35,955 nt of DNA from Patescibacteria group bacterium (GCA_038078255.1 JBBUEH010000023.1:1-35955), one strand, 5' to 3'. Shown: positions 1,004 to 35,955, numbered from the stretch's first letter. Made by a program: numbers and translations. The notes: a model not told the origin generated them from the letters alone.

Positions 1004-1120
1004 TAACTTTTTAAAATATCAACTTTTCTTCGGTACGGATTTTTTGAAGCTTAAAAAATCCTGAAGTTCTCGGCTCGTCAGCCTCGAAACCCCTACGAAA
1101 AGTTATATTTTAAAAAGTTA
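1004..1120. repeat. Palindromic mini-element family A, copy 1: 64-bp core (1031-1094) inside ~24-bp inverted arms
   Basis: Arms taactttttaaaatat(c)aacttttc / gaaaagttatattttaaaaagtta. Core cggtacggattttttgaagcttaaaaaatcctgaagttctcggctcgtcagcctcgaaacccct matches 12064-12127 at 63/64. Confidence 0.9.
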
Positions 1121-1136
1121 TTAATTAGAATTAGCC

Positions 1137-2354
1137 ATGTTATTTTCTTACAAAGCAAAATCAAAGACAGGAGAAATCATAGAAGGTGTATTGGATGCTT
1201 CGGATCGTATTACTATGGCTCATGAACTTAGGCTCCGTGGACAGACCCCTATTTCTGTATCAGAAAAAGGAGAAAATTTGTCTGATCAAATATCCAAGAT
1301 TTTAAATATTTTCTCCGGAGTAAAAGTTGCCGAACAAATTATTTTTACTAAAAACTTAAGTGGAATGTTAAAAGCAGGGCTTTCGCTTGCTCGAGCGTTG
1401 TCGGTGCTGGAAAAACAGACTAAAAACCAAACTCTTTTAAAAATTTTACAATCTCTCTCTTCCGATATTAATTCTGGCGAGACTTTTTCTTCTGGACTAG
1501 CGAAATTTTCCGAAGTGTTTTCAAAACTTTTTGTTTCTATGACAAAGGCCGGCGAAGAGTCGGGCAATCTATCTGGCGCCCTCTCCGACATCGGAGTGAA
1601 TTTAGAAAAGTCGCACTCTTTGACAAAAAAGATACATGGAGCATTGATTTATCCTGGTGTGATACTCTCGGCAATGGTTGTCATTGGAGTTTTAATGTTT
1701 GCTTTTGTGGTGCCAACGCTGGCGAACACCTTTAAAGAATTGGGCGTTACTCTACCCCTATCGACTCGTATTATTGTTTGGTTTGGGAACTTTTTCTCAA
1801 ACAATTTAATTTTTACTTTTGTTATTTTGATAATTATCGCTTTTGGACTCTTTTCTCTTTTCCGCGCAAAATTTATGGCGAAGTATATTGATTACGCTTT
1901 AATCAAAATTCCAGTTTTAAAGAACATGACTAAAGAACTAAACACTGCTCGCACTGCTCGCACCATATCATCTCTCCTGGTTTCGGGTGTTTCCATTGTT
2001 CGAGCAATTGAGATAACCGAAGACGTTGTGCAAAATACTTTGTTTAAAAAAGTTTTGAATGAAGCTCGGGGGGCGATCGAACGGGGAAGTCCATTTTTCG
2101 AAATTTTTAGAAATCATTCCGATCTCTACCCCGTGATGATGTCTGAAATGGTTCAAGTTGGCGAAGAAACAGGAAAATTATCGGACATGTTACTGCAGGT
2201 TGCGCTTTTTTATGAAGATGAAATTGAAAATAAAACAAAAAATCTTTCCACTATCATCGAGCCCGTGCTAATGATTGTCATCGGCGCCGGGGTTGGATTT
2301 TTCGCTATTTCCATGATTTCACCTCTTTATTCGGTGTTGGATAATATTAAATAA
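1137..2354 (+). CDS. pilC: Type IV pilus inner-membrane platform protein PilC/GspF
   Basis: Two GspF-type repeats (LSGMLKAGLSL...AGEESGNL; LLVSGVSI...VGEETGKL), hydrophobic segments, downstream of pilB. Confidence 0.93.
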   Translation: MLFSYKAKSKTGEIIEGVLDASDRITMAHELRLRGQTPISVSEKGENLSDQISKILNIFSGVKVAEQIIFTKNLSGMLKAGLSLARALSVLEKQTKNQTLLKILQSLSSDINSGETFSSGLAKFSEVFSKLFVSMTKAGEESGNLSGALSDIGVNLEKSHSLTKKIHGALIYPGVILSAMVVIGVLMFAFVVPTLANTFKELGVTLPLSTRIIVWFGNFFSNNLIFTFVILIIIAFGLFSLFRAKFMAKYIDYALIKIPVLKNMTKELNTARTARTISSLLVSGVSIVRAIEITEDVVQNTLFKKVLNEARGAIERGSPFFEIFRNHSDLYPVMMSEMVQVGEETGKLSDMLLQVALFYEDEIENKTKNLSTIIEPVLMIVIGAGVGFFAISMISPLYSVLDNIK

Positions 2355-2359
2355 CCTTT

Positions 2360-3823
2360 TTAATTTTTTACTTCCTGCCATGAAAGTATTTGATACTGAC
2401 TCGAAGTAAGAGGAAAGTTTGGTGGTGGAGCATAAAGCAAATTCGCATCATAGGTTATACTGCGAGTAGCATAGCCGCTTGAGTAAACCCCCTGACTATT
2501 TGTCCACGTGAAACCATATCTTTTATAAGATGCAATCATTCCGTAAAGTGTGACAATTGAACGTTTTTTTTCAGCACAAGTTCCTCCATAAGAAAATCTT
2601 CCCACTTTCTCATTTTGAGCTATAAGTGCTCCATCTATTTTTAAATCATCTTCACTAAAGAGTCCAACCATTACTCCAGCTTGTCCGATGAGACCCAAAG
2701 AATCCGTACCATTATAAAGAGTGTATAGAAGGTCATTATTTATTATAATATTTTTATAACCAGCAGGTGCAGGTACAGGCAAATCAGCTGCTGTTATAGT
2801 CAGCCGCGCTCCATTTATTTGTCCATTGATTACCACATGGTCTTCAATGAATATTATTCCATTCCCCGGAAACGCATAGTTTCCCTGTAGGGTTTGTGCG
2901 TTGATGCTCCAGCTTGGACTTCCGGTGCAACTTCCCAAAGTTGTCCATGAATTTATTTTATATAAGTCAAAAGTATCGTCTGTTTTTAAAACTATATGAT
3001 AACCAACAAAACCAACTCCAGATACATCTCTATAAAATCCACTCGATATTGCATCCGCTTTTAGGATGGCTAAATCAGTTGTGAAGCCAGAGAAATCAAT
3101 TAACGGCTGGCTTATTAGGCGTCCAGCTTCAAAAACATCTGGACGGGCAGGGAATGCTGTGGGAGACGTCGGATCAGCAGGAGACAGACAAGTGTGCACA
3201 CCCCAAGAATTAGTGGTAGTGCAAGCATCAGAATCTGCGTCTGTATAAGTTGTTGCTCCGCTCGTAACAATATTGTGCGCTAGACCGTCAAAACGAATTC
3301 CTCCATTGACGTGTACTGGTCCGAAAATTTCTGTGCCTGCGCCAAAACGAAATGCATTATTTCCCGCTACTGAGTATTTTGCGATAGAAGGTTTGGCTAC
3401 TTGGCTTTCTATCTTTCTTATATACGATGGATCAAGTGATGAAGATCCGGTAGATTTTATTTTTACCAGAGTGGAGCCCAAGATTGGAGCTGTGATGTCA
3501 AGAGAAAATTGTCCAACAGTATTGCCGCTTCTATCTTTGACAGCGTGTACATATGGTCCCGCCACTCCTGTACCGTCTTGGTAATCACTTGGAGCATGCG
3601 CTAGATGCCAGCGATAATAATCTATCCCAGCTTCCGCTGCCTGAAAGGCTTGTTCTCGATTAAAAGCTATGCGACCTGCTTTTATACTTATTGCTGCCCA
3701 AGAGGAAAGAGCGCCAATAAGCATGATGACAATTGTGGCAAATACCATAATTTGTACTATGATCATGCCAGCTAGCTGACAATTACTAACTGATTTTTTG
3801 GATTTTATAAATTTGTAAATCAT
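2360..3823 (-). CDS. PilX-like minor pilin / pilus-associated protein
   Basis: Basic leader then G|MIIVQIMVF hydrophobic helix without Glu+5, followed by REQAFQAAEAGI (PilX N-terminal type). Last of three co-oriented pilin-like genes. Confidence 0.7.
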   Translation of the reverse strand: MIYKFIKSKKSVSNCQLAGMIIVQIMVFATIVIMLIGALSSWAAISIKAGRIAFNREQAFQAAEAGIDYYRWHLAHAPSDYQDGTGVAGPYVHAVKDRSGNTVGQFSLDITAPILGSTLVKIKSTGSSSLDPSYIRKIESQVAKPSIAKYSVAGNNAFRFGAGTEIFGPVHVNGGIRFDGLAHNIVTSGATTYTDADSDACTTTNSWGVHTCLSPADPTSPTAFPARPDVFEAGRLISQPLIDFSGFTTDLAILKADAISSGFYRDVSGVGFVGYHIVLKTDDTFDLYKINSWTTLGSCTGSPSWSINAQTLQGNYAFPGNGIIFIEDHVVINGQINGARLTITAADLPVPAPAGYKNIIINNDLLYTLYNGTDSLGLIGQAGVMVGLFSEDDLKIDGALIAQNEKVGRFSYGGTCAEKKRSIVTLYGMIASYKRYGFTWTNSQGVYSSGYATRSITYDANLLYAPPPNFPLTSSQYQILSWQEVKN

Positions 3824-5794: not shown

Positions 5795-6565
5795 ATGGCA
5801 AGAAAGAAAATAATAATAGGTAATTGGAAGATGAATCCGGGGACGATGAAAGATGCAGAACAATTATTTAAAAAAATAGTGAAGTCAGTAAATCGCACAA
5901 AAAAAACCGAAATAATAATTTGCGCGCCTTTTATTTACTTAGATGAATTAAATAAAATTCAAACAAGCAAGGTAAAGCTTGGTGCGCAAGATGCTTTCTG
6001 GGACGAGGCGGGACCTTATACTGGAGAGATTTCTTCTGACATGCTTTACAACCTTGGCGTCAGATATGTGATTTTGGGTCATTCAGAAAGGCGTTCTCTG
6101 GGCGAAACGAATACCTTGGTGAATAAAAAAATAAAAGGAGCCTTGGCTTCCGGACTGGTGCCGATACTTTGTGTGGGAGAGAATACCAGAGATGCCAGTC
6201 ATGCTTATTTTAATATGGTGAAAGAGCAAGTGGTGGAATGTCTCCAGGGAATTTCTAAAAATTCAATTTCCAAAGTGATCATTGCCTACGAGCCGGTGTG
6301 GGCACTTTCTAGTACTCTTCCTCGTAAAGATGCTACGGCGCTCGATGCGCAAGAGATGGCTATTTTTATTCGTAAAATACTGTCAGATAAATTTGGTTCT
6401 GAGGCAGGCAGAATTAGAATAATTTACGGTGGTTCTGCCAATGAAAAAGATGCGGGAGATTTTTTAAAAAATGGAGGGATCGATGGATTGTTGCCCGGTC
6501 GGGCCAGCCTGGACGCCTTAAAATTTGTCGAAATTATTAATATTGCAGAAAATTTTACAGAGTAA
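5795..6565 (+). CDS. tpiA: Triosephosphate isomerase
   Basis: GNWKMN, GHSERR, AYEPVWA, YGGS motifs. Confidence 0.96.
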   Translation: MARKKIIIGNWKMNPGTMKDAEQLFKKIVKSVNRTKKTEIIICAPFIYLDELNKIQTSKVKLGAQDAFWDEAGPYTGEISSDMLYNLGVRYVILGHSERRSLGETNTLVNKKIKGALASGLVPILCVGENTRDASHAYFNMVKEQVVECLQGISKNSISKVIIAYEPVWALSSTLPRKDATALDAQEMAIFIRKILSDKFGSEAGRIRIIYGGSANEKDAGDFLKNGGIDGLLPGRASLDALKFVEIINIAENFTE

Positions 6566-6631
6566 GGTTTTCTCGGGTCCTCGGAAAAAATCCCCAGACC
6601 AGCTCGAAAACCTTACTCTGTAAAATTTTCT
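6547..6631. repeat. Palindromic mini-element family A', overlapping the tpiA stop
   Basis: Perfect 26-bp inverted repeat (6547-6572 / 6606-6631) around tc-g-ggtc-ctcgg...cca-gacc-agc-tc. Same core grammar as the in-frame insert at 21226-21303. Confidence 0.9.
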
Positions 6632-6642
6632 AAAAAATATAT

Positions 6643-7875
6643 ATGAAACTTAAAACGCTCGACAGTCTAGACATAAACGGCAAAACTATTCTTTACCGCG
6701 CTCCTTATGATATTGAACTTCAAGAAGTGAATGGGATTTTTGAACTTTCAGACGATTCTCGCATTGCAGCGACTCTTCCCACTCTGCAATATCTTTTGAA
6801 ACAAAATTGTAAAATAGTTATTCTGACCTATGTTGGACGACCGGATGGGGCGGTGGTCGAAGGGCTTCGAACCACTCCTCATGCAAAAAGATTAAGCGCA
6901 CTTTTAAATCATCCAGTTTTGAAAGTAGACGACTGTATCGGCAAAGAAGTTGATTTGGAGGTGGCGCACATGAAGCCCGGAGACATTATTATGTTGGAGA
7001 ATGTTCGCTTTCATAGCGAGGAAACGATTGATGATAATGAATTTGCTAAAAAACTTTGCGTCGGGAAAGATCTGGTCGTCTTCGACGCTTTTCCTCAAGC
7101 CCATCGAATCCATGCTTCCACCACTGGGATTCAAAGAATTTTGCCTACGGTGGCTGGTCGTTATCTAGAGCATGAGGTTAAAATGTTGTCTCTTTTATTA
7201 GAAAAGCCCCAACATCCCTTCACCGTCATTGTGGGCGGGGCAAAAATTTCTGACAAAGTAGATGCCATTCGTAATCTGCTTAATGTCGCTGACACTTTTT
7301 TAGTCGGGGGCGCTGTCGCTAATATTTTCTTGAAAGCGCAGGGGAGAATTATTGGAAGTTCTTTTATTGAAGATGTTTTTGTCGATAAAATGAAGCGAGA
7401 GAAAAAAGATTGGATCCAAGACGCTGGAGAAATATTAAAACAAGCGGAGACTTTAGGTAAAAAGATCATCACTCCCGTGGATCTGGTTATTTCCGATGGG
7501 GTGACAGTGAAAACCATTGATATTACCACAGAGGAAATTCCAATGGGGTGGATGGCGTTTGATATTGGGCGAAAGACTCTGGAAGAATTTTCTTTGGTCA
7601 TCAGTCAGTCGAAGACTGTTTTCATGAATGGGCCCATGGGTAAATTTGAAAACGAAAGATTCTCTTTTGGTTCTCAAGTGATCATTAACGCAATGAAAAA
7701 TCTGAAAGCAAATTTCTTGGGTGAAACAATCGTCGCTGGAGGAGAGACTATTGATGTGGTACGCAAGTATGGAAGCCTGGATGATTATTCCCATGTCAGC
7801 CTAGCCGGTGGCGCGACTTTAGAATTCTTAGCTGGCCGTGAACTCCCAGCACTTACGCCACTTCTACTGAAATAG
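6643..7875 (+). CDS. pgk: Phosphoglycerate kinase with divergent substrate-binding motifs
   Basis: LLENVRF-like MLENVRF, AHR.HAS, GGAKISDK, NGPMGKFE, HVSLAGGATLEFL. Adjacent to tpiA. Confidence 0.92.
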   Translation: MKLKTLDSLDINGKTILYRAPYDIELQEVNGIFELSDDSRIAATLPTLQYLLKQNCKIVILTYVGRPDGAVVEGLRTTPHAKRLSALLNHPVLKVDDCIGKEVDLEVAHMKPGDIIMLENVRFHSEETIDDNEFAKKLCVGKDLVVFDAFPQAHRIHASTTGIQRILPTVAGRYLEHEVKMLSLLLEKPQHPFTVIVGGAKISDKVDAIRNLLNVADTFLVGGAVANIFLKAQGRIIGSSFIEDVFVDKMKREKKDWIQDAGEILKQAETLGKKIITPVDLVISDGVTVKTIDITTEEIPMGWMAFDIGRKTLEEFSLVISQSKTVFMNGPMGKFENERFSFGSQVIINAMKNLKANFLGETIVAGGETIDVVRKYGSLDDYSHVSLAGGATLEFLAGRELPALTPLLLK

Positions 7876-7876
7876 T

Positions 7877-8332
7877 TTATTTAGATTTTATTTTTTCGGC
7901 TGTTCTTTTAAGTTTCTCGTCGCTTTCTCTTTTGTAATCGTGAGACGAAATATAGCCCTCATATTTTTTAAAGTATTTTCTGATATTAGAATTTCTCGGC
8001 TTCCACTTTTTATCTTTAGTTCCATGCATGGGGAAAAGCTTTGCATGCACATGATCTACGCCGAAACCTTCGAAAATCATCCCCGTCCTTCCGACATCTT
8101 CGAGTTTTGCATCTAAGAGCCTTCCCACTTTTTTAGAAGCAATAATTAATTTTTTTAGAACATTATCTGGTAAATTGAAAGCATAGCTCGGATAATGTTT
8201 CTTGGTTATGACCACGCTGAATCCTTCAGTGTTTGGATAGGGTGTCAGAAAAGCTAAATGCTCTTTGTCTTCCCATGTTTTATAACATGGAGCCCCTCCT
8301 TTCACTATTTTGCAAAAAATACAATCGTCCAT
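7877..8332 (-). CDS. HIT-family nucleotide hydrolase (HxHxK variant)
   Basis: DCIFCKIV N-terminus; HIT-like motif DHVHAKLFP. Confidence 0.85.
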   Translation of the reverse strand: MDDCIFCKIVKGGAPCYKTWEDKEHLAFLTPYPNTEGFSVVITKKHYPSYAFNLPDNVLKKLIIASKKVGRLLDAKLEDVGRTGMIFEGFGVDHVHAKLFPMHGTKDKKWKPRNSNIRKYFKKYEGYISSHDYKRESDEKLKRTAEKIKSK

Positions 8333-8368
8333 AAGTATATTATAGCAAATTGTGTTAAAATTTCACTT

Positions 8369-10045
8369 ATGCAGAAATACGGCGAGTTATTGAGGGAACT
8401 TTTAGAAAAAAGAGGTATCATCGATCCAGTTCAAGCCGAGATTTTTTTAAACCCAGATTATAAACGAGATTTACACGATCCATTTTTAATGAAAGATATG
8501 GAGAAAGCCTGCGTCCGTCTTTATGAAGCAATAGATAATAATGAAAAAATAATTATTTATGCGGACTATGATTGTGATGGAATCCCGGGGGCAGTAATAT
8601 TAGTAGATTTATTAAAAGAAATAAAATACAAAAATTACGAAGTTTACATTCCACAAAGGAATTCCGAAGGGTACGGGCTAAATTTAGAAGCTATCAAGCA
8701 ATTTACCAAGTCTGAAGTGAAGTTGTTGATAACTATTGATCTCGGCATTACAGCAGTGGCTGAAGTGGCGCAAGCTGAAGTGGATGGTATTGATGTCATT
8801 ATTACGGATCACCACTTACCTCAAGATGTTTTACCTCGTGCATATGCAATTTTAAATCCTAAAGTGGATGATTATTCTGAAAAAATGCTGTGTGGATCCG
8901 GAGTGATATTTAAATTTGCGCAAGGATTTATAAAAAAGTATGGAGAATATTTTAAGACAAAAGAAGGCGCTGAAAAATGGATGCTCGACATGGCGGGATT
9001 AGCGACCCTCTCCGATATGGTTCCGCTTTTGGGCGAGAATAGAGCTCTGGCATATTTTGGTCTGAAAGTTTTAAGGAAGTCTCCTCGTCCGGGGTTGCAA
9101 AAACTTCTGGCAAAAATAAACATTGACCAAAAATATCTAACCGAAGATGATGTGGGTTTCATGATAACTCCACGGCTGAACGCTGCTTCACGGATGGATG
9201 ATCCGATGCGAGCATTTGAACTTCTGGCAACAGGGGATGAGGTGGAGGCGGGTAGGCTGGCCGACCATTTGTCAAAAATAAATGACGAAAGGAAAAGCAT
9301 TGTTGCGGGGATTATGCGTGAAATAAATAAAAAGTTTGAGAAGAGAGAAATGAGAGAAGTAATAGTTGTTGGTAGTCCAGATTGGCGGGTGGGTGTTTTG
9401 GGTCTGGTGGCCGGAAAAATTTCTGATGAATACCAAAAGCCGGTTTTTGTTTGGGGGAAAGATGAGAATGATTGTATCAAAGGTTCTTGTCGAAGTGATG
9501 GCTCAGTGTCTATCGTCGAACTCATGACGGAAACTCGAGAATCTTTTATAGATTTTGGCGGGCATGAATTGGCCGGAGGATTCACTGTCCACAGTGACAA
9601 AATTCATTTTCTAGAAGAAGTACTATCTAATAATTTTAAGAAAATTATTTCTGCTGATCTCCCCCTTACTAAGGGGGAGGTGCCAAAGGCGGAGGGGGTA
9701 TTTGATGTAAAATTGACCCTAGGAGAGGTCAATCTAAAAAACTGGAAAGAAATAGAAAAGCTGGCGCCCTTTGGTCTGGGCAATCCGAAGCCTGTTTTCT
9801 TTTTCGAGGGTGTAAAAATAGAAAAAATAAAAAAGTTTGGCAAAAATGGCTCGGGAGAACATTTGGAAATTATTTTTTCTGACGGAGGTGGCGCAAAAGC
9901 TAAGGCGATTTCCTTTTTTTCTAATCACGATTCTTTTGAAACTAAATTATCCGAAGGACTAAATGTCAATTTGCTTGCGTCGTTCGATTTATCTAGATTT
10001 CGGGGCAGAGAAGAGTTAAGATTAAGGGTGGAAGATATTATGTAA
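8369..10045 (+). CDS. recJ: Single-stranded-DNA exonuclease RecJ
   Basis: DYDCDG, ITIDLG, TDHH, PRLNAASR, GSCRS, GGHELAGG, LAPFGLGNPKP. Start moved to ATG 8369, which avoids the overlap with the HIT gene and has an extended -10 at 8353-8361. Confidence 0.95.
   Translation: MQKYGELLRELLEKRGIIDPVQAEIFLNPDYKRDLHDPFLMKDMEKACVRLYEAIDNNEKIIIYADYDCDGIPGAVILVDLLKEIKYKNYEVYIPQRNSEGYGLNLEAIKQFTKSEVKLLITIDLGITAVAEVAQAEVDGIDVIITDHHLPQDVLPRAYAILNPKVDDYSEKMLCGSGVIFKFAQGFIKKYGEYFKTKEGAEKWMLDMAGLATLSDMVPLLGENRALAYFGLKVLRKSPRPGLQKLLAKINIDQKYLTEDDVGFMITPRLNAASRMDDPMRAFELLATGDEVEAGRLADHLSKINDERKSIVAGIMREINKKFEKREMREVIVVGSPDWRVGVLGLVAGKISDEYQKPVFVWGKDENDCIKGSCRSDGSVSIVELMTETRESFIDFGGHELAGGFTVHSDKIHFLEEVLSNNFKKIISADLPLTKGEVPKAEGVFDVKLTLGEVNLKNWKEIEKLAPFGLGNPKPVFFFEGVKIEKIKKFGKNGSGEHLEIIFSDGGGAKAKAISFFSNHDSFETKLSEGLNVNLLASFDLSRFRGREELRLRVEDIM
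9659..9699. repeat. GC-rich palindromic mini-element in frame in recJ
   Basis: ctccccctt-act-aagggggag, then gcc-aaa-ggc, then ggagggggt. Read as LPLTKGEVPKAEG in an AT-rich linker. Confidence 0.7.
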
Positions 10046-10051
10046 AAAACT

Positions 10052-10537
10052 ATGATAAAACAAGATAAAGTAAAAATTTATACCGACGGAGCGGCGAAGG
10101 GCAATCCTGGGCGGGCAGGCTGGGGGGTGGTTTTTCTGGTGGGGGTGAATGATAAAGTGATTGAGATAGGTGGAAGTGTAAATCATGCGACGAATAATCA
10201 GATGGAATTGACAGCGCCGATAGAAGCGTTGAAATATATTTTGACTAGGCAAGACCTAGTCGGGTGTAATATAGAGATTATTTCTGATTCTAAATATGTA
10301 ATTTTGGGAATCACGGAGTGGATTTTCAACTGGCAGAAAAATAATTGGCGGAATGCCAACAGAAAGCCAGTCTTAAATCGGGAACTCTGGGAAGAACTTT
10401 ATGAACTTACGAATGAGTTGAAACCAAAATGGACCTATGTTAAAGGGCATAATGGGAACAAGTGGAACGATAGAACAGACCTAATTGCTACGAGCTTTGC
10501 CGAGGGTGAGCCAGTGGAACTTAAGAATAATAAGTAA
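10052..10537 (+). CDS. rnhA: Ribonuclease HI
   Basis: YTDGA.KGNPG, TNNQMEL, SDSKYV, W..NNW, VKGH.G..WND..D. Confidence 0.95.
   Translation: MIKQDKVKIYTDGAAKGNPGRAGWGVVFLVGVNDKVIEIGGSVNHATNNQMELTAPIEALKYILTRQDLVGCNIEIISDSKYVILGITEWIFNWQKNNWRNANRKPVLNRELWEELYELTNELKPKWTYVKGHNGNKWNDRTDLIATSFAEGEPVELKNNK
10243..10261. repeat. Single AGG-N5-CCT palindromic unit in frame in rnhA
   Basis: gactagg-caaga-cctagtc; the aggcaagacct core is identical to the comEC unit at 10913-10923. Confidence 0.6.
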
Positions 10538-10542
10538 GTTAA

Positions 10543-12054
10543 ATGCAAGATAGAATTTTTTATGGAGCTTGTTTTGGTTTTGTATTTGGAGTATTTTTGC
10601 GTTCCTTGGTTTTTGTAAATATTTATTGGGCGGTTTGGATTGGAGTAGTATCGTTTTTTCTAGTTTTATTTTTCAGCTTAGTTTCAAAGAATAATTGGGG
10701 AATTGTAATTTCGGTTTTCGTATTAGTATTTTCTTTGGGAATTTTAAGGTTTCATGTTGCTGATAAAATAGCACCGAGAATTTTAGAATTACAAGTGGGA
10801 CAAAAGGTAACTTTTTTCGGGAAAATTGTAGATGCGCCGGATATCAGAGAAAATAATCAAAAATTAACTGTTGAAATTTTGGCTCCTCAAGGTCTTGCCT
10901 TGGAATCTTTAAAGGCAAGACCTTTTCTCGCCAAAATTTTAGTCACGACAAATTTCGGTCAGGATTTTAAATATGGCGACCAGGTAAACTTTTCTGGCCG
11001 TTTAGAAAAACCAGAAAACTTTAGCACTGATCAGGGGAAAGAATTTGATTATATAAATTATTTACGCAAAGATGGAATATTTTTCGTCATGAATTATGGG
11101 AATGTAGAAATTATTTCGAGAGGAAACGGCAACAGAGTAAAAAGTGCGCTCTTTTTTGTTAAAGAAAAATTTCTGGAAAAAATGAATTTTGTAATATCTT
11201 CTCCTGAGAATTTACTGATGGGAGGACTTATTTTGGGTGAAAAATCTGCCTTTAATCAGGAATTAAGGACTAGTTTTGTGGATACAGGTACGATTCACAT
11301 CGTTGCCTTGTCTGGTTATAATGTGACAATAATTGCAGAATGGTTGATGAAATTATTTAAATTTTTGCCCCAAAATCTCGGTATCGGGGTGGGGATCTTT
11401 GCGATTTTACTTTTTGTTTTAATGACAGGAGGAAGTTCCACGGCGGTTCGGGCGGGAATAATGGCCACGCTAGTATTGGTGGCCCGGGCGACCGGGAGAA
11501 ACTATGATGTCGCCCGGGCGCTCTTGCTCGCTGGGGTTCTGATGATTTTTATCAACCCATTTGTGCTTGTCCATGATGTGTCTTTTCAACTTTCTTTCAT
11601 TGCTACGGTGGCGGTTATATTTTTTACTCCCAAAATTGAAAAATATTTTTTATGGGTGCCAGATTATTTCAAATTGCGGGACATAATTTCTGTCACCTGC
11701 GCCGCTTATGTCTTCGTTTTGCCTTTTATTCTTTATAAAATGGGTAATCTTTCCTTCGTTGCCTTGCCGGCGAATTTTTTAGTTTTACCTTTTATTCCAT
11801 TTACGATGATACTTGGCTTCCTCACTGGTTTTGCAGGATTTGTCTCACATACTCTGGCTGTGCCCCTGGGATTTTTATCTTATTTATTTCTGCGCTACGA
11901 ACTGGCCGTAATTAATTTTTTTGCACACATCCCCTTTGCCTCACTTTCTTTCCCTAATTTCCCACTTATCTTGACCTTTCTAATTTATGCCTATTTTATT
12001 TATATGCTTTTTGGCAGGAGTATAAAAGATTTCTTTTTAGAAAATCAAAAATAA
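10543..12054 (+). CDS. comEC: ComEC/Rec2 DNA-uptake channel (N-terminal OB/DUF4131-type + competence membrane domain, no MBL domain)
   Basis: FDYINYL, GTIHIVALSGYNV, STAVRAGIM, DVSFQLSF; many TM segments. Confidence 0.92.
   Translation: MQDRIFYGACFGFVFGVFLRSLVFVNIYWAVWIGVVSFFLVLFFSLVSKNNWGIVISVFVLVFSLGILRFHVADKIAPRILELQVGQKVTFFGKIVDAPDIRENNQKLTVEILAPQGLALESLKARPFLAKILVTTNFGQDFKYGDQVNFSGRLEKPENFSTDQGKEFDYINYLRKDGIFFVMNYGNVEIISRGNGNRVKSALFFVKEKFLEKMNFVISSPENLLMGGLILGEKSAFNQELRTSFVDTGTIHIVALSGYNVTIIAEWLMKLFKFLPQNLGIGVGIFAILLFVLMTGGSSTAVRAGIMATLVLVARATGRNYDVARALLLAGVLMIFINPFVLVHDVSFQLSFIATVAVIFFTPKIEKYFLWVPDYFKLRDIISVTCAAYVFVLPFILYKMGNLSFVALPANFLVLPFIPFTMILGFLTGFAGFVSHTLAVPLGFLSYLFLRYELAVINFFAHIPFASLSFPNFPLILTFLIYAYFIYMLFGRSIKDFFLENQK
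10889..10924. repeat. Inverted doublet of AAGG-N5-CCTT units in frame in comEC
   Basis: aaggtcttgcctt-N10-aaggcaagacctt, a perfect 13-bp inverted repeat; read as QGLALESLKARP. Confidence 0.8.
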
Positions 12055-12151
12055 GATTTTTGCCGGTACGGATTTTTTGAAGCTTAAAAAATCCTGAAAT
12101 TCTCGGCTCGTCAGCCTCGAAACCCCTTAAAAACCTTATTTTTGATTTTCT
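12039..12151. repeat. Palindromic mini-element family A, copy 2, between convergent comEC and sod
   Basis: Core 12064-12127 matches 1031-1094 at 63/64. Arms agaaaatcaaaaataagattttt / aaaaaccttatttttgattttct (22/23 complementary); the left arm contains the comEC stop. Confidence 0.9.
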
Positions 12152-12155
12152 TTTT

Positions 12156-12746
12156 TTATTGAGCCTCTGTAAAATTTTTCTCTACCACTTTCCAATTTAG
12201 ATTTTCAAAAAAATCTTCAATATATTGTTTTTTGCCACTGGGTTGGTAATCAAAAACGAAAGAATGTTCCCACATATCTAGAGCCAGAACAAGTGTGCAG
12301 TCTTGAAGTTGCCCCAGATGCTGTTCATCTACCCATGCGTTCAACAACCTTTTTTCTTTCCTATCATAGTAGAGCATTGCCCAGCCAATGCCACGGGTCA
12401 GGGCAATAGATTTGAAACGATTGAGCCATGCGTCAAAAGAGCCCCATTCTTCTGCGATGGTTTTTTTTAATTCGCTGTTTTCGTCCAGAACCTGAGGTCC
12501 ACCAGAAAGAGACTGGAAATAAACTTCATGATTTCGCATGCCATTGTATTCAAAGCCAAATCGTCTCTGGACTTCACCCAGTGCGTAGGCGTTTTTTTCC
12601 GCATCTAATGCTAATTCATTAATTTTTTCCAATATTAGGTTAGTATGTTTGACATAGCCTGCATAGAGTTTCAAATGCTCTTCAATGTTTTTAGCCGAGA
12701 GGCCCTTCAACTCCCCAATATTAAATTTCATTTCTTCAAATTTCAT
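12156..12746 (-). CDS. Fe/Mn superoxide dismutase family protein
   Basis: EHLKLYAGYV, NHEVYF, GIGWA, LDMWEHSF metal-ligand motifs. Start set at ATG 12746 (MKFEE). Confidence 0.9.
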   Translation of the reverse strand: MKFEEMKFNIGELKGLSAKNIEEHLKLYAGYVKHTNLILEKINELALDAEKNAYALGEVQRRFGFEYNGMRNHEVYFQSLSGGPQVLDENSELKKTIAEEWGSFDAWLNRFKSIALTRGIGWAMLYYDRKEKRLLNAWVDEQHLGQLQDCTLVLALDMWEHSFVFDYQPSGKKQYIEDFFENLNWKVVEKNFTEAQ

Positions 12747-12764
12747 ATATGTTAATATTGTAAC

Positions 12765-13646
12765 ATGTTTCAACAATACAAAACACCTATCCAAAAGTAT
12801 GGCTTATTTTTTCTTACCCTATTACTTTTAGTGATTACCGTTTTTCTTTTCTACCTTGATTTGAAAAGCTGGAGCAGAGGTTTTACTTTTGCTGTGTTGG
12901 ATATTGGGCAAGGCGATGCGCTTTTTATAGAATCTCCGACGGGGACGCAGATTTTGGTGGACGGCGGTCCACCCCGCAAAATATCGGGTCAGCTGGCGCA
13001 GGTCATGTCGCCTTTCGATAGACACCTAGATGCGATCATTATTACGAATCCTGATCAAGATCATATGGGCGGATTTCTAGATGTTTTGAAAGTTTATAAA
13101 GTTGATAAGGTGTTCGAATCCGGCACACGCAATGATTCTAAAATTTATCAAAATCTTAAAGAAGAAATAAAAAATAAAAATATTCAAAATATTCAAGCGG
13201 AGAAGGGAATGCGACTTCATCTAGGCGGTGGCGTAGTGCTAGATGTTTTATTTCCCGATAGAGATGTTTCTGCTTGGTCGCCAAATGATGGTTCAATAGT
13301 AATGAAGTTGAGTTACGGTAAAATATCCATCATGTTGACTGGAGATAGTACGGCAAGAACAGAGAAAATAGTGCTGGATGAATTTTCTGAAAGAGCGCTC
13401 AAAAGTACTGTTTTAAAAGTTCCTCATCATGGCTCTCGTACTTCTTCGTCTGCCCCATTTGTGCAAGCTATTTCTCCAGACTATGCCCTGATTTCAAATG
13501 GGGAAAATAATAAATATGGTCATCCACACCAAGAAACTCTGGACACTTTGACTCAATTAGGTGCCGAAATTTTCCGCACTGATTTGCTCGGCACTATTAT
13601 CCTGAAATCTGATGGCGAGAATATCGAGTTTTCATTTAAAAAGTAG
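12765..13646 (+). CDS. Stand-alone ComEC-type metallo-beta-lactamase-fold protein with N-terminal membrane anchor
   Basis: LDIGQGDA, VDGG, TNPDQDHMGG, NDGSIV, LTGD, KVPHHGS, NKYGHPH, RTDLLGTI. Confidence 0.88.
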   Translation: MFQQYKTPIQKYGLFFLTLLLLVITVFLFYLDLKSWSRGFTFAVLDIGQGDALFIESPTGTQILVDGGPPRKISGQLAQVMSPFDRHLDAIIITNPDQDHMGGFLDVLKVYKVDKVFESGTRNDSKIYQNLKEEIKNKNIQNIQAEKGMRLHLGGGVVLDVLFPDRDVSAWSPNDGSIVMKLSYGKISIMLTGDSTARTEKIVLDEFSERALKSTVLKVPHHGSRTSSSAPFVQAISPDYALISNGENNKYGHPHQETLDTLTQLGAEIFRTDLLGTIILKSDGENIEFSFKK

Positions 13647-13664
13647 TTGTGATATTATGAAACC

Positions 13665-14909: not shown

Positions 14910-14915
14910 AATTTT

Positions 14916-15638: not shown

Positions 15639-15661
15639 CTAAAGTGAAAGAAAATAAAAAT

Positions 15662-23500: not shown

Positions 23501-24576
23501 CAGAAGATATTTGGTTGAGGTTGAAAAATGAAAATGACCCAGAAAGCGTACATTTAACACAATGGCCTACTCAAAAATTTAAAATTTTCTTCTTCACTAG
23601 AGCCAAAGTTTTAGAGAAAATGAAAACAGTCAGAAGTATGGTTACTCTTGGTCTTGAGGCTCGCCAGAAGTCGGGGATAAAAGTTCGCCAGCCGTTAAGT
23701 CGACTAGAGATTATAGCTGAAGAATTATCAGATCAGTATATTGATATCATTAAAGATGAATTAAATATAAAGAATATTATTTATTTATTAAAAATAAAAA
23801 TAGGTATAACTAAAGTAACTCTAAACACAGATATTACAGAGGAATTAAAAGCCGAAGGGGAATACCGAGAATTTATTAGAGAACTCCAAAACAAGCGCAA
23901 GAAGCTGGGACTAAATCCAGGGGACAAGATGGTGATGAGCATAGAGGAGATTTATAAAAAATACAAAATCATGCCGAACCTACAGGAGCACATGCTTCGA
24001 GTGGCGGCAGTGGCATCTTTGATTTGTGATAATTTCAGTGAGCCACTTCCAAAAGAAGATATTATTACTGCTTGTTTACTTCATGATATGGGGAATATAA
24101 TTAAATTTAAGTTAGATTATTTTCCGGAAGTTTTACAACCACAGGGTTTAGAATATTGGCAGAATGTTAAAGATGAGTATGTAAAAAAGTATGAAAATGA
24201 CGAGCATGTAGCTACGAATAAAATAGCTCAAGAACTTCAAGTCTCTGATGAAATTTCAGAATTAATCAATGCTGTTAGTTTTCTGGGCGCACCCAATCTT
24301 GTTTTAGGAGAAAATTTTAGTAAAAAAATTATGGAATATTGCGATGATCGAGTGAGCCCGCTTGGGGTGGTGAGTCTAGAGGAGCGACTGATGGATTTAA
24401 GAAAACGCTATAGTCACAAGAGTCATTATACGCCCGAAAAACGAGATGCCTTCGATCAGGCTATGAGGCAAATAGAAAAACAAATTTTCGCAAAGTGCAA
24501 AATTAAACCGGAAGATATAAATAATGAGACAGTCAAAACAATAATTTCAAGCTTGCGGGATTTTGTGGTAAAATAG
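20587..24576 (+). CDS. ileS: Isoleucyl-tRNA synthetase (IleRS2-type) with inserted histidine-phosphatase domain and C-terminal HD domain
   Basis: FYDGP, GWDTHGLPVE, AWTTTPWTLPGN, GTGIVHTA, YPHCWRC, DWAISRERYWGTP, DVWFDSG, EAIDQTRGWFY, KMSKS. Ile T-box upstream. Confidence 0.95.
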   Translation: MEENNKKSEASLCEEKILEFWRENNIFEKSVEQRKGKKEFIFYDGPVTANSKPVLHTMVPFSFKDVIPRYRTMRGYHVRRKGGWDTHGLPVELQIEKKLGFKSKNDIENYGIAAFNKLCKESVWEFIDLWKNFTKRMGYWADQENAYVTYHNNYIESVWNVVKKINEQKLLYKDYKVVPWCPRCGTALSSHELAQGYEDVKDLSVYVKFKIRSIGERFSQVLGSPGPSPGQTIRKPSTDSAFILAWTTTPWTLPGNVALAVGKDIDYVKVKVENEILILAKARIAILGENPEIIGEIKGKDLIGLEYEPLFPFFADTISENEKPKLKNAYKVYLADFVNTEDGTGIVHTAVMYGQDDFELGTKAGLPKHHLVNPEGKFIKGTGFLEGRVVKPARTTDAVQSGGEKDVAIDIIIDLAHRGLLFKKEKYEHSYPHCWRCHTALIYYARDSWYIKMSDPKIKKNLIAQNEKINWEPKYIREGRFGEWLREIKDWAISRERYWGTPLPVWLDKNNNFRVLGSFEELKKFVKKSDNKYFVMRHGGSVANQKNVGSLNPGEENDVLTSEGREQVKLQAKKLPEKPDLIVSSNFIRTQQTAETVAEIFGISKEQIILNEELREAGAVKSPNENQEDIRKRVIGVLQDLEKKYSGKNILIISHEYPLRVFLSAHESLSEQEEFHNFNNKYLVMQNAEVFQCDFLPLPRNNNGQIDLHRPFIDDLELVGEDGSTLVRVKEVMDVWFDSGAMPFAQDHYPFENKKWVEGKGYPADYICEAIDQTRGWFYTLHAIGILMGRGKAYKNVICLGHLLDVTGKKMSKSIGNVVDPWQVMDKYGVDTLRLWMYSVNQPGESKNFDEKTVALLHQQVFGLLYNVLAFYELYRDKKKETNDRPKSKNILDQWILARLDELIKISTENLDNYKLLEPTRAIRDFIGDLSTWYLRRSRERIKEGDKDAKQTLYFVLKTLAKVIAPLAPFTAEDIWLRLKNENDPESVHLTQWPTQKFKIFFFTRAKVLEKMKTVRSMVTLGLEARQKSGIKVRQPLSRLEIIAEELSDQYIDIIKDELNIKNIIYLLKIKIGITKVTLNTDITEELKAEGEYREFIRELQNKRKKLGLNPGDKMVMSIEEIYKKYKIMPNLQEHMLRVAAVASLICDNFSEPLPKEDIITACLLHDMGNIIKFKLDYFPEVLQPQGLEYWQNVKDEYVKKYENDEHVATNKIAQELQVSDEISELINAVSFLGAPNLVLGENFSKKIMEYCDDRVSPLGVVSLEERLMDLRKRYSHKSHYTPEKRDAFDQAMRQIEKQIFAKCKIKPEDINNETVKTIISSLRDFVVK
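21226..21303. repeat. Family A' palindromic element (78 nt, 26 codons) in frame in ileS
   Basis: 17-bp arms (15/17 complementary) around tc-a-ggtc-ctcgg...cca-gacc-at-tc; read as IGERFSQVLGSPGPSPGQTIRKPSTD. Confidence 0.85.
21760..21795. repeat. CCCGCC...GGCGGG palindromic element (36 nt) in frame in ileS
   Basis: cccgcccga...tcgggcggg arms; read as PARTTDAVQSGG. Confidence 0.8.
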
Positions 24577-31599: not shown

Positions 31600-33071
31600 T
31601 GACAGAAAAAAAATCTTTCTATATTACAACAACCATACCGTATGTAAATGCAGAACCTCATATTGGTTTTGCGCTGGAGCTTGTACAGGCTGATGTCTTG
31701 GCGCGCTACCATCGTCTAGTAAACAAAGATGTGTTTTTTAATACGGGGACGGATGAGCATGGGCAAAAAATTTGGGAGGCCAGTCAGAAAGAAGGTAAAG
31801 ATGCGCAAGATTATGTTGATAAATATGCCCAAAATTATCTAAATTTAAAAAATATCCTTAATCTTTCTAACGACAACTTTATTAGGACGACCGATTCGAG
31901 ACACATTCAAGCGGCCCAAGAATTTTGGCGTCTATGTAACGAAAAAGGCGATATTTATAAAAAGAAATATAAAGGACTTTATTGTGTGGGGTGTGAGAAA
32001 TTTATTACAGAAAAGGATTTGGTAAATGGTAAATGCGAATTTCATCTGACACTCATTCCGGAGTTGGTAGAGGAAGAAAATTATTTTTTCAAATTAACAA
32101 ATTACAAAGAGCAACTTTTGGAATATCTTTCTAAAGCAGAATCAATCTTGCCAGAATGGCGCAGAGCTGAGGCTATAAATTTTGTTCAAAGTGACATGGA
32201 AGATTTTTCAATTTCCCGTGTGAAGAAAAGATTTTCTTGGGGGGTGCCAATACCGGGAGATGACGAACAAGTGATGTATGTTTGGTTCGATGCTTTTGTA
32301 AATTATCTTTCTACATTGGGTTGGCCCGCCTCCGCTAAAGCTTCGGCGGGCGAGCCCGACAGCCAAGGGGATTTATTTGAAAAGTTTTGGTTGAAAGGCG
32401 AAAAAGTACAAGTAGCTGGAAAAGACATGGTCAAATTTCAGTCAGTCATGTGGCAGGGGATGCTCATGTCAGCTGGTTTACCGACAACGAATACCATCGT
32501 TTATCATGGCTTTATTACTGGAGATGGGGGAGTCAGGATGTCCAAGTCCATCGGTAATGTTATAAATCCGAACGAAATTGTAAAAGAATACAGCACGGAT
32601 GCTCTGCGATATTTTCTTTTACGAGAAATTTCTTCTTTTGAAGATAGTCCGTTTACGATGGAGAGATTTAAGGAAGCATATAATGCAAATTTAGCGAACG
32701 GATTAGGAAATTTAGCGTCGCGCATACTCACTCTTTCAGAAAAATATTTAGAAAAGTGTCCCGAAATTCCGGAGAAGTCTAACTTTACAGAATATTTTAG
32801 TTTTTTTGAAAAGTTTGATATTAAACAAGCGACTGACTATATTTGGAACGAAATCGGAGAATTAGATAAATTTATCCAAGAAACTGAACCGTTTAAGGTG
32901 GTAAAAGTAGATGAGAAAAAAGGAAAAAAATTAATTTCAGATACGGTGATTCGTTTATATAAAATAGCTCGAATGTTGAATCCAATAATGCCGGAGACAA
33001 ATGTTTTAATTAAAAATTTAATTAGAGCAAACAAAAAGCCCGAGAAGCCGTTGTTTCCGAGGAAAGATTAA
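31599..33071 (+). CDS. metG: Methionyl-tRNA synthetase (short form)
   Basis: YITTTIPYVNAEPHIGF, TGTDEHGQK, YCVGCE, YVWFDA, GKD, RMSKS, LFPR C-terminus. Confidence 0.96.
   Translation: MTEKKSFYITTTIPYVNAEPHIGFALELVQADVLARYHRLVNKDVFFNTGTDEHGQKIWEASQKEGKDAQDYVDKYAQNYLNLKNILNLSNDNFIRTTDSRHIQAAQEFWRLCNEKGDIYKKKYKGLYCVGCEKFITEKDLVNGKCEFHLTLIPELVEEENYFFKLTNYKEQLLEYLSKAESILPEWRRAEAINFVQSDMEDFSISRVKKRFSWGVPIPGDDEQVMYVWFDAFVNYLSTLGWPASAKASAGEPDSQGDLFEKFWLKGEKVQVAGKDMVKFQSVMWQGMLMSAGLPTTNTIVYHGFITGDGGVRMSKSIGNVINPNEIVKEYSTDALRYFLLREISSFEDSPFTMERFKEAYNANLANGLGNLASRILTLSEKYLEKCPEIPEKSNFTEYFSFFEKFDIKQATDYIWNEIGELDKFIQETEPFKVVKVDEKKGKKLISDTVIRLYKIARMLNPIMPETNVLIKNLIRANKKPEKPLFPRKD
32324..32358. repeat. GCCCGCC...GGCGGGC palindromic element in frame in metG
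   Basis: gcccgcc-TC-cgctaaagct-TC-ggcgggc; read as PASAKASAGE. GCCCG recurs 30 nt apart. Confidence 0.8.
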
Positions 33072-33072
33072 A

Positions 33073-33927
33073 ATGCCACAATACATCGATATCCACAGCC
33101 ATGTGAATTTCAAGGCCTTTGACGCAGACAGGGATGCGGTTATTCGTCGCACCTTAGAAAATAATACTTGGGTGATAAATGTCGGTACGCAGACAGATAC
33201 TTCCAGAAAGGCAGTTGAAATAGCAAATCAGTACAAAGAGGGGGTATATGCGATCATAGGACTTCATCCAATACATACTGGGGAATCTTTTCATGATGAG
33301 GAGGAGTTGGGTCAAGGTGGCAAGGATTTCACCTCCCGTGGAGAAGTTTTTGACACAGAATTTTACAGAGAACTTTTAAAAGACCCGAAAGTCGTGGGTA
33401 TCGGAGAATGTGGATTGGATTATTACAGATGTAATGAAGAATCAATTTCAAAACAAAAAGAAGCTTTCGTGAGTCAAATAAAATTAGCCAATGAATTTAA
33501 TAAACCATTAATGCTGCATATACGCAATGGTTCGACAGGTTCACCACAGGCAATCCCAAATAGAAATGCATATTCTGACGCGCTGGAGCTTTTAAAAACT
33601 CACGCAAAAGTCAAAGGCGATGTGCATTTTTTTGCAGGGACTTTGGGAGAGGCGAAAGGTTTTTTAGATTTTGGTTTTACTTTATCTTTCACTGGAGTCA
33701 TCACCTTCACTCACGATTATGATGAGATAATAAAAAACACACCGCTCGAGATGATTATGTCCGAGACAGATTCTCCATATGTCACACCTGTGCCCCACCG
33801 AGGTAAACGGAATGAACCTGTTTTTGTGAAGGAAATAGTCAAAAGGATTGCCAAAATAAAAGATCTGCCAGAAGAAGAAGTGGCGCAAGCGATAATAGCC
33901 AATGCAAAAAGAGTATTTACTTTTTAA
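33073..33927 (+). CDS. tatD: TatD-family DNase
   Basis: DIHSH, GLHP, GIGECGLDY, LHIR, HFF, ETDSPY, RGKRNEP. Confidence 0.93.
   Translation: MPQYIDIHSHVNFKAFDADRDAVIRRTLENNTWVINVGTQTDTSRKAVEIANQYKEGVYAIIGLHPIHTGESFHDEEELGQGGKDFTSRGEVFDTEFYRELLKDPKVVGIGECGLDYYRCNEESISKQKEAFVSQIKLANEFNKPLMLHIRNGSTGSPQAIPNRNAYSDALELLKTHAKVKGDVHFFAGTLGEAKGFLDFGFTLSFTGVITFTHDYDEIIKNTPLEMIMSETDSPYVTPVPHRGKRNEPVFVKEIVKRIAKIKDLPEEEVAQAIIANAKRVFTF
33528..33551. repeat. TTCGAC...TCA.C.CAGGC mini-hairpin in frame in tatD
   Basis: tggt-TC-gacaggt-TC-acca-caggc; read as GSTGSPQA in a loop after LHIRN. Confidence 0.65.
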
Positions 33928-34938: not shown

Positions 34939-35139
34939 ATGAAACAAGATTATTTTTCAGCGAACAATATAAAATACATAGACTACAAAGATATTGAAAT
35001 TTTAAAGAAATTTTTGAATCCCAATGGTAAAATAATGAGCCACAAACGAACTGGCGTCACAGCTAAGAATCAACGACAGCTCGCAGTGGCTATTAAGCAT
35101 GCTAGGTTTCTAGGGTTGCTTTCTTTTGTGGTGAAATAG
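34939..35139 (+). CDS. rpsR: 30S ribosomal protein S18
   Basis: IDYKD...LKKF...GKI...RTG...QR.LA.AIK.ARFLGLL. Confidence 0.96.
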
Positions 35140-35148
35140 AAATCAAGA

Positions 35149-35730
35149 TTACACCCTTTCTACATATTCTTCCGTTTCAGTATTGATGCTGACAATGTCA
35201 CTTTCGTTTATAAACATTGGCGCATTTAGGCTCGTACCATTCTCCAGGGTTATAACTTTGTTGCCACCTTTAGAGGTGTCTCCTCGGACGGCTGGTGGAG
35301 CTTCTCTAACTTTAAAATTCATTTTGATAGGCAAACTTATTTTAATTATTTTTTCTTCATCATCATTATTTATCCAAACTAGAGCGGTCACATTTCCATT
35401 TTGTTTAAGAAATTTCACACTGTTACCCATCAATGCTTCTTCTAATTTAAATCTATTCGCTTTATTTTCAGGGTCGCAGAACCAGTATTCTTTTTTATTG
35501 GAATATAAAAATGTTACCTCTCTCTTTTCTATCTCGGCTTCATCCGCAGAGTCTGCTACATGGAAAGTAGCAGGGAAGACTTTGCCGGAGACGAGGCTTC
35601 GGAGCTTTACTTGATTTTGCGGTTTTCTTTGTTGCGTGCGAGCAACATGGCTTTCTACCACTTCACAGGGCTCATCATCATGAATAATTATTTTCTTCTC
35701 GCGAATTTCACTGTATTGAAGTTGAGACAT
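35149..35730 (-). CDS. efp: Elongation factor P
   Basis: PPAVRGDT, LENG, PMFINE.D.V.INTET.EYVERV. Start set at ATG 35730. Confidence 0.92.
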   Translation of the reverse strand: MSQLQYSEIREKKIIIHDDEPCEVVESHVARTQQRKPQNQVKLRSLVSGKVFPATFHVADSADEAEIEKREVTFLYSNKKEYWFCDPENKANRFKLEEALMGNSVKFLKQNGNVTALVWINNDDEEKIIKISLPIKMNFKVREAPPAVRGDTSKGGNKVITLENGTSLNAPMFINESDIVSINTETEEYVERV

Positions 35731-35785
35731 GTGGATTATACTAGCAAATTTAATTTTGCTATGCAAATTATCTTTTTAAAAACAA

Positions 35786-35955
35786 CTAAACTTCCTCAGC
35801 GAATTTCTTCTTGATTTCTTTTAGAATTTGGTCTGCTATCTTTTTATCTTCTTTTAAGAATTTTCTTGTGGCGTCGTAACCTACACCAAGTTTTACTTTC
35901 TCCCTAGACGCTTCAGCTGAAGCGTCGGGCGATCTGCCTTTGGCAGATTTAGCCT
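35786..35955 (-). CDS. recA: 3' end of a gene running off the window, probably RecA
   Basis: Manual translation ...AKSAKGRSPDASAEASREKVKLGVGYDATRKFLKEDKKIADQILKEIKKKFAEEV*. KLGVG.DA.R.FLKE...IA..I...I resembles the RecA C-terminal KIGQG.ENA..FLKEN..IA.EIE..I pattern. Confidence 0.65.
   Translation of the reverse strand, partial: AKSAKGRSPDASAEASREKVKLGVGYDATRKFLKEDKKIADQILKEIKKKFAEEV
35907..35948. repeat. Two adjacent palindromes in frame in the putative recA
   Basis: gacgcttcag|ctgaagcgtc (perfect 20-mer) and atctgcc-ttt-ggcagat. Confidence 0.75.

Follow-up and report, generated by a model that had tools for sequence, protein, structure and literature searches.

Hairpin repeats tolerated within genes of a small Patescibacteria genome, some of them probably linked to RAYT-type transposases

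Introduction

Can short palindromic DNA repeats settle within housekeeping genes and be read through in frame, and what kind of enzyme would move them? This question is raised by a contig of 35,955 nucleotides (nt) from a Patescibacteria group bacterium (GCA_038078255.1 JBBUEH010000023.1:1-35955), the whole of which is referred to below as the window. An earlier inspection of the bare DNA, here called the sequence-only reading, marked short inverted-repeat elements of several families in recJ, rnhA, comEC, argS, ileS, metG, tatD and recA, across stop codons, between genes and in a riboswitch loop, and proposed a non-autonomous mobile system that adds peptide loops to essential proteins. The analysis reported here leads to a composite answer: the window probably holds hairpin repeats of at least three sorts, all tolerated by genes, namely repetitive extragenic palindromes (REPs) and their inverted doublets (REPINs) of the type served by REP-associated tyrosine transposases (RAYTs), long hairpins built around a conserved clamp, and orphan GC-rich palindromes.

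The window is the entire contig C23 of an assembly of 521,524 bases in 23 contigs (G000; other G numbers denote genomes of the same genus and C numbers contigs of G000), with a completeness of 86.9%, a GC content of ~38% and a coding fraction of ~92%. Same-genus relatives have genomes of 0.4–0.9 Mb, ten of them keep the gene order of the window, and the window sequence itself is present in groundwater metagenome runs. Pfam supports RecJ, RNase H, ComEC, ArgRS, IleRS, MetRS, TatD, TIM and PGK as names of the window genes, and the host open reading frames (ORFs) of the sites run uninterrupted. Of the nine in-frame sites originally listed, the one in tatD is not a palindrome.

Hairpins Beyond Chance Expectation

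Fourteen named sites were each folded as DNA and compared with 200 dinucleotide shuffles. Strong folds were obtained for nine of them, with z-scores from -4.2 to -9.1: 1004–1120 (z -6.1), 6535–6643 (z -9.1), 10240–10268 in rnhA (z -4.2), 10874–10939 in comEC (z -7.3), 12039–12151 (z -6.1), 18370–18414 in argS (z -5.9), 20549–20578 (z -4.9), 21758–21799 in ileS (z -4.3) and 35896–35955 in recA (z -4.9). Two more fold moderately, in recJ (9655–9700, z -2.8) and at a second ileS site (21226–21303, z -2.3), while the T-box loop (20445–20480, z -1.2) and the sites in metG (32320–32366, z -0.2) and tatD (33520–33565, z +1.0) do not rise above their shuffles. The hairpins of the sequence-only reading are therefore real, with the exception of the tatD site and the weak T-box and metG folds.

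The same excess is found across the genome. A scan for perfect stems of at least 9 base pairs (bp) with loops of at most 12 nt returned 205 hairpins, as opposed to 45.3 ± 6.6 after dinucleotide shuffling in 1-kb blocks; stems of at least 12 bp numbered 65 (1.5 in shuffles) and stems with at least 50% GC numbered 87 (3.0 in shuffles). Within 543 coding sequences, 131 hairpins were counted, where synonymous-codon shuffling left 37.3 ± 4.3 and codon permutation 31.8 ± 3.6, and stems of at least 12 bp were found 32 times against 1.0 and 0.4, respectively, so that the motifs are clearly more frequent than in codon-shuffled controls and the idea of gene-borne repeats is not refuted on this count. 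By number, most perfect hairpins (131/205) lie wholly within ORF calls. Furthermore, counts of family copies across the genome bear out the statement that the families recur in unrelated genes.

RAYT Genes and Their Cognate Palindromes

As had been noted from the sequence, no mobiliser is encoded in the window; six RAYT-like Y1/HUH genes lie elsewhere in the same genome. They were recognized as six Y1_Tnp (PF01797) matches, five of them above the Pfam cut-off, and correspond to ORFs of 209–259 amino acids (aa) on contigs C16, C14, C2, C18, C1 and C12. REP_Tyr_transpos is the top NCBIfam family for all six proteins. An alignment of 16 sequences shows no variation in the HUH histidines or in a Y-x3-NP motif, and the profile of this alignment has a sole match among PDB sequences, 4ER8, the E. 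coli TnpA-REP. The same structure is the top Foldseek match (E 9e-7, TMt 0.69) of a RAYT model with a predicted local distance difference test (pLDDT) score of 86.4, ahead of IS200/IS605 transposases.

Four of the six genes carry an identical stem of at least 9 bp on both sides, and each of these stems is a private palindrome family; the C14 gene has an 8-bp copy across its stop codon, and the C16 gene has a palindrome upstream only. Of the nuclease types that had been suggested as search targets, Y1/HUH is thus present, at least four of the six genes being bracketed by their own palindrome; the GIY-YIG type, suggested alongside, is represented by one 85-aa ORF (C9:4463-4657). Flanking hairpins likewise occur at 15 of 26 RAYT ORFs from relatives (read by eye from the listing) and at 37 of 77 named Patescibacteria loci. 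Dispersed as orphan copies, the six RAYT-cognate families have 3–8 sites each in G000 when up to two mismatches are allowed, and such palindromes also stand in frame in long ORFs, including those of LigA and RuvC. In LigA, the NAD-dependent DNA ligase, the palindrome coincides with a gain of 7 aa relative to G015 and G006 and of 2 aa relative to G018 and G013.

The RAYT clade comprises at least 584 stretches in species-representative genomes, and the best 80 relatives are nearly all labelled Nomurabacteria, Paceibacterota or other Patescibacteria. One of these 80, L153 (L numbers denote loci), lies on a contig of a metagenome-assembled genome (MAG) labelled Nitrospira sp., a label that could reflect a binning error or transfer; the others are Patescibacteria-type or unnamed. 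Within the genus, RAYT genes are found in 33 of 41 genomes, with 1–11 copies each. The RAYT gene at C12:7047-7742 (L046), which is the Y1_Tnp match below the Pfam cut-off, has an in-frame copy of the palindrome that flanks it, forming an insert of 9 aa immediately behind the HUH motif, and the RAYT genes in L094 and L129 also contain an internal copy of their flanking hairpin. No tRNA genes are found within the window or at the six RAYT loci. A single reverse-transcriptase gene (C17:15913-16548, 346-aa frame) is also present in G000.

Three window elements were matched to such genes by comparing the palindrome families with the flanks of 115 RAYT loci. The first is a single REP hairpin in frame in rnhA (10243–10261; no strand is assigned to this or the other palindromes below unless stated), with the loop motif AGGCAAGACCT. 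A stretch of 20–21 nt recurs unchanged in both flanks of the RAYT gene in L121, and one of 15–17 nt in RAYT flanks at eight more loci. The second, in frame in comEC (10874–10939), consists of two inverted copies of one REP with a 10-nt spacer plus outer arms, and a 15-nt stretch of its arms matches both flanks of the RAYT gene in L106. The third, in frame in argS (18374–18410), consists of two inverted 13-nt REPs with an 11-nt spacer, and a 14–15 nt stretch of its arms matches both flanks of the RAYT genes in L129, L094, L062 and L113. Because two hairpins stand inverted with a short spacer between them, the comEC and argS elements have the layout of REPINs. The proposed REP/RAYT model is thus supported for rnhA, comEC and argS, through RAYT flanks of other Patescibacteria only; the other families match none of the 115 loci.

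It is therefore proposed that the rnhA, comEC and argS palindromes, with their xAGG-N5-CCTx apex, would be substrates of a Patescibacteria-wide RAYT (Y1/HUH) clade. If the mechanism resembles that of E. coli TnpA-REP and IS200/IS605, a single-stranded hairpin, once folded, would be bound, cut and rejoined by the enzyme, which would presumably act in trans on orphan copies. Copies that arrive in frame in tolerant linkers would be read through as short loops, which is possible because stop codons are rich in AT and the repeats in GC, and the remaining copies would presumably be lost by selection.

In-Frame Inserts in Conserved Proteins

In alignments with up to ten orthologues per gene, close orthologues have a gap where the hairpin lies at seven of the nine ORF sites, the exceptions being rnhA and tatD. 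The claim that the elements add peptide loops is accordingly supported at these seven sites and not at the other two, since rnhA shows no net gain and the tatD gap has no palindrome. Relative to orthologues, the inserts amount to +8 aa in recJ and +11 aa in comEC (each against 7 relatives), +7 aa in argS, ~+9 aa in metG and +5 aa in tatD. IleRS has two, of +24 aa at aa 213 and of +12 aa at aa 394, the latter being exactly a 36-nt palindrome. An in-frame palindrome from another recurring family is also found in a PurL-like protein. Across 11 genomes, 24 of 104 lineage-specific inserts of 5–40 aa fold at z < -3 relative to control segments from the same gene, and 29 of 104 at z < -2; judging from the former fraction, hairpin inserts are a genus-wide habit.

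The metG site (32324–32351) is a GC-rich hairpin in frame from an orphan family with three genome copies. It is counted as an element because of the two further copies and the orthologue gap. Inserts at the same site are present in G002, G006, G015 and G007; folding is strong for the inserts of G006, G015 and G007, and that of G002 is not in the list of folded inserts. In an AlphaFold model of MetRS (mean pLDDT 84.4), the insert residues 249–256 lie between two helices with pLDDT <50, so that mapping onto a predicted structure, as had been advised, places this insert in a low-confidence loop.

The 36-nt GC-rich palindrome in frame in ileS (21760–21795), also from an orphan family, corresponds to a 12-aa gap relative to the shortest orthologues. 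Mobility was checked by comparing Logan contigs of four runs with window positions 6400–22400. In these four runs many contigs match the ileS stretch alone and diverge at 21758–21760 and 21794–21797, so this unit is a discrete repeat. None of the contigs cleanly skips an element, and mobility is thus not directly seen; since contigs drop rare variants, the lack of skipping contigs says nothing on the absence of empty sites. Apparent joints in these contigs have short sides and were left out of account.

The recA element consists of two adjacent hairpins (35907–35948, minus strand) in frame in a gene that continues into contig C8. C23 (window 35901–35955) and C8:34333-34387 overlap by 55 nt in reverse orientation within the recA palindromes; joining the two contigs through this overlap reconstructs recA and yields an insert of +17 aa relative to 4 relatives. 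The assembly broke at the recA repeat. Such a break, in an assembly of 23 contigs of which C23 and C8 end in the recA palindromes, together with the frequent termination of Logan contigs at palindromes, is what would be seen if the elements were artefacts of metagenome assembly or binning. That explanation is nevertheless extremely improbable: ends at palindromes are expected assembler behaviour, contigs from the runs of other studies bridge the sites with 0–1 differences (X5 record 11 spans 9659–11051 and X5 record 16 spans 21103–22400), and similar inserts are found in 10 other genomes of the genus.

Long Clamp Hairpins

A second sort of repeat is represented in the window by two families of long hairpins on the plus strand, A and B, to which a C form found elsewhere is related. 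Family A has an intergenic copy at 1004–1120, which begins 12 nt past the stop codon of a T2SSE-type ATPase gene and has private AT-rich arms around a conserved two-hairpin core. This core is 98% identical to that at 12062–12128, part of the second family A copy (12039–12151), which lies between convergent genes and has the comEC stop codon in its left arm. Metagenome contigs pile up on family A at ~12.1 kb. An orthologous copy at the comEC end of G015 has arms of different sequence that are still paired, and G013 and G018 have small AT-rich hairpins there, so that, alternatively, the element may have been inserted into a pre-existing small hairpin.

Family B is present as a short form at 6547–6631, where the left arm includes the tpiA stop codon and pgk starts at 6643, and as a copy at 21226–21303 that is read through in frame in ileS. 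The overlap with the stop codons of tpiA and comEC is thus as first described, and so is the occurrence of one family both between genes (6547) and within one (21226). The arms at 6547 are complementary in 26 of 26 positions. The outer left arm is native coding sequence of tpiA, common to G017, and the orthologous tpiA-pgk junctions of 7 relatives have no hairpin; on these grounds, comparison of the sequences suggests that the right arm may be an inverted copy of the host flank. At aa 213 of IleRS, different hairpins of the same superfamily are present in G015, G012 and G007, the core of the G007 copy belonging to another subfamily that occurs in G000 in a different gene, and 7 of 11 genus relatives have none; as to which arm is native in these in-frame copies, the alignments are compatible with either.

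In the B form, a conserved clamp, GGTCCTCGG...CCAGACC, surrounds an inner hairpin whose sequence and length differ between copies, the changes being paired. The exact B clamp is absent from the two family A copies, which have only the architecture and the core ends in common with it. Of 41 genomes of the genus, 30 contain the B clamp, in 1–14 copies each, and a reversed control pattern gave 0 hits. Among 17 long-hairpin copies from five genomes, the arms of one copy are 95% complementary to each other, whereas between copies the arms show 31.5% complementarity and 31.6% identity. Six of the 17 are read through in ORFs of at least 387 aa, five have the stop codon of the sense ORF in their left arm, one more lies directly after a stop, and none of the 17 is clearly antisense in a long ORF. 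In a long hairpin, the clamp would accordingly have a variable hairpin on its inner side and private arms on its outer side; the whole would lie in the sense of the gene and often take up its stop codon on the left.

The mobiliser of the long hairpins is probably not RAYT; families A and B match none of the 115 RAYT loci searched. It is proposed, tentatively and as one possibility to be entertained rather than expected, that the clamp hairpins (A/B/C) form an element type of their own that does not depend on RAYT, in which insertion, or later maintenance through template switching, makes an inverted copy of the target's 5' flank, acts strand-specifically and reuses sites across species (ileS codon 213, the comEC end and a site upstream of recA). 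If flank copying is true, each copy gains private paired arms from the host sequence, the host stop codon included. Strand-specific action of the IS200/IS605 type would fit the sense-orientation bias.

Selection for a function, as gene-end terminators, mRNA stabilisers or sites for a clamp-reading protein, rather than selfish spread, could also be considered for families A and B, given that a conserved clamp separates inner and outer helices that covary, that the copies lie in sense orientation, with the stop codon of the upstream ORF in or directly before the left arm in the cases counted above, and that the G000 and G015 copies at the comEC end keep their pairing despite differences in the arms. 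This explanation is unlikely, since 6 of 17 copies, including those in ileS of four species, are read through in long ORFs, and since 11 of 41 genomes have no clamp copy at all. A terminator consensus scan returned 15 sites against 16.8 expected, none of them at the elements, whose loops exceed the limit of the scan. Nor does Rfam offer a functional class: at permissive thresholds the matches of family A are confined to generic hairpin models of the microRNA type, with neither ribozymes nor riboswitches among them, the ileS copy of B has no Rfam match, and no match reaches the gathering score anywhere in the window.

Orphan Palindromes and Remaining Sites

Apart from the ileS, metG and recA elements described above, an orphan family is represented in recJ, where a palindrome with a polypyrimidine/polypurine stem stands in frame (9659–9679); copies with similar stems lie at C16:7063 and C21:7376.

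The riboswitch-loop site belongs to the ileS T-box leader (20335–20494, plus strand), which scores 44.7 bits (E 2.2e-8) against RF00230, short of the 93 bits set as gathering score, and whose T-box sequence itself aligns. Its last loop contains an insertion of 30 nt (~20454–20483) with a weak fold and no family recurrence. The location in a riboswitch loop is as first described, at a sub-threshold score. Between the T-box terminator and the ileS start lies a 30-nt AT-rich palindrome (20549–20578), of which no other copy was found. The tatD site (33528–33560) is a 5-aa lineage-specific insert, not palindromic, with z +0.7 in the insert survey. Neither the T-box loop nor the tatD sequence matches the RAYT flanks of the 115 loci.

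IleRS itself (window 20587–24576) has a fused C-terminal part of ~215 aa (aa ~1113–1329) with an HD-domain match; the fusion is shared by G003, G014 and G015, and the same part is a separate gene of 219–221 aa in G018 and G013. Residues 534–617 (window ~22186–22437) match Pfam His_Phos_1 (E 2e-17), and alignments to the ileS of relatives frequently break near aa 617–625.

Objections and Template Switching

Several observations weigh against tying the palindromes of the window to RAYT enzymes or to an insertion process within genes. The six proteins score 31–61 bits against REP_Tyr_transpos, below its cut-off of 80, and palindrome families are small, with 2–16 sites each. None of the six G000 RAYT genes is flanked by the rnhA, comEC or argS sequences, for which matches are found in other genomes only; the G000 assembly is, for its part, only 87% complete. 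The recJ, ileS 21760, metG and recA elements match none of the 115 RAYT loci. Nor is the co-occurrence of clamp and RAYT close, 25 genomes having both, 8 RAYT only, 5 the clamp only and 3 neither. In G012, which is 99% complete, neither Pfam nor the clade profile detects a RAYT, and yet this genome has 14 hairpins with an arm GC of at least 0.4 in 36 kb, the densest of 11 genomes, with two clear families. The number of RAYT genes shows no clear relation to hairpin density in 11 syntenic stretches (G013 has 0 RAYT and 0 GC-rich hairpins, G012 0 and 14). Hairpin density is ~7x higher outside ORFs (74 in ~40 kb as opposed to 131 in ~481 kb), the rnhA palindrome gives zero net length gain relative to relatives and sits in a stretch of variable length, and that of the PurL-like gene gives only ~+2 aa and replaces sequence rather than adding to it.

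Some of these observations would be expected if no mobile element were involved and palindromes arose in place, and stayed perfect, through template switching by fold-back copying during replication. According to the excerpted text of one study, template switching can create hairpins in one step and maintain them (PMC8794818). Arms that are private to each copy and nearly perfect, a native outer left arm at tpiA (shared with G017) where relatives lack the hairpin, replacement rather than net insertion in rnhA and the PurL-like gene, and the many hairpins of the RAYT-free G012 all agree with such an origin. This explanation is very doubtful, since identical sequences of 15–21 nt are found at unrelated loci, in different genomes and on both sides of RAYT genes; against it also stand the clamp and core sequences at different places in 30 of 41 genomes and the sharp borders of the ileS 21760 unit in many metagenome contigs. 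The reading of the window as a mixture of RAYT-type REPs and REPINs, long clamp hairpins and orphan palindromes is therefore preferred.

This mixture would have several consequences. It provides a concrete source for many of the lineage-specific protein inserts of ultra-small Patescibacteria, about a quarter of the examined inserts being hairpins, and such inserts form a natural map of the tolerance of essential enzymes to loop insertion. A streamlined genome of 0.5 Mb still keeps six transposase-plus-repeat systems. In-frame palindromic peptides, so far best known from Rickettsia without a mobiliser, are, for some elements at least, tied to an enzyme family that can be identified. For the assembly of MAGs, such repeats are breakpoints, as at the recA contig end, and clamp hairpins with host-flank arms pose a mechanistic problem.

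Comparison With Known Systems

REP/RAYT systems and REPINs are established. The RAYT-linked elements resemble these systems (REPtrons) in having a Y1/HUH enzyme whose nearest solved relative is 4ER8, a gene flanked by its own hairpin, several RAYT-plus-palindrome families per genome and dispersed orphan hairpins; the inverted doublets at argS, at comEC and at the flanks of the C18 RAYT resemble REPINs. In contrast to typical REP/RAYT systems, the host is a Patescibacteria genome of ~0.5 Mb, the families have 2–16 copies rather than hundreds, and most copies by count lie inside ORFs, typical REPs being extragenic. Unlike known RAYTs, the proteins of 209–259 aa score below the NCBIfam RAYT cut-off.

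Rickettsia palindromic elements (RPEs) are palindromic repeats that are read in frame in tolerant loops of conserved proteins. They are longer, about 100–150 bp, and to our knowledge no transposase has been assigned to them. By description, RPEs share in-frame read-through in conserved proteins with the present elements and differ in being conserved in sequence over the whole element.

The HUH fold and, presumably, the recognition of imperfect hairpins in single-stranded DNA are shared with IS200/IS605 TnpA. Unlike IS200/IS605 elements, the repeats have no distinct left and right ends, TnpB (PF07282) is not found in G000, and the NCBIfam IS200 family matches only one of the six RAYT-like proteins, weakly. 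Like MITEs (miniature inverted-repeat transposable elements), the repeats are short, non-coding, hairpin-forming and dispersed; families A and B are the reverse of a MITE in that their ends vary (31.6% arm identity) while the middle is conserved, and a target-site duplication was not identified.

The closest published parallel concerns REPs that lie wholly inside ORFs of known proteins (Di Nocera et al., 2013; PMC3733652). As excerpted, this survey lists replication and repair genes and tRNA synthetases prominently among the hosts of intragenic REPs, describes REP ends that supply stop codons, and mentions RPEs (PMC3733652). It also reports that two Xanthomonas species have different REPs at roughly one and the same site of recB, a case that parallels the ileS and metG sites of the window (PMC3733652). 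The organisms named in the excerpted text are Xanthomonas, Stenotrophomonas, Thauera, cyanobacteria, Rickettsia and others, and not Patescibacteria (PMC3733652). No paper on REP or RAYT in Patescibacteria was found among the literature matches listed, and the one match for tyrosine transposase plus Patescibacteria concerns, in its excerpt, an archaeal locus. Intragenic REPs are thus already known; what is new is the host group, the load of six RAYT genes in 0.52 Mb, the genic majority of the repeats by count, and the clamp hairpins with their private arms.

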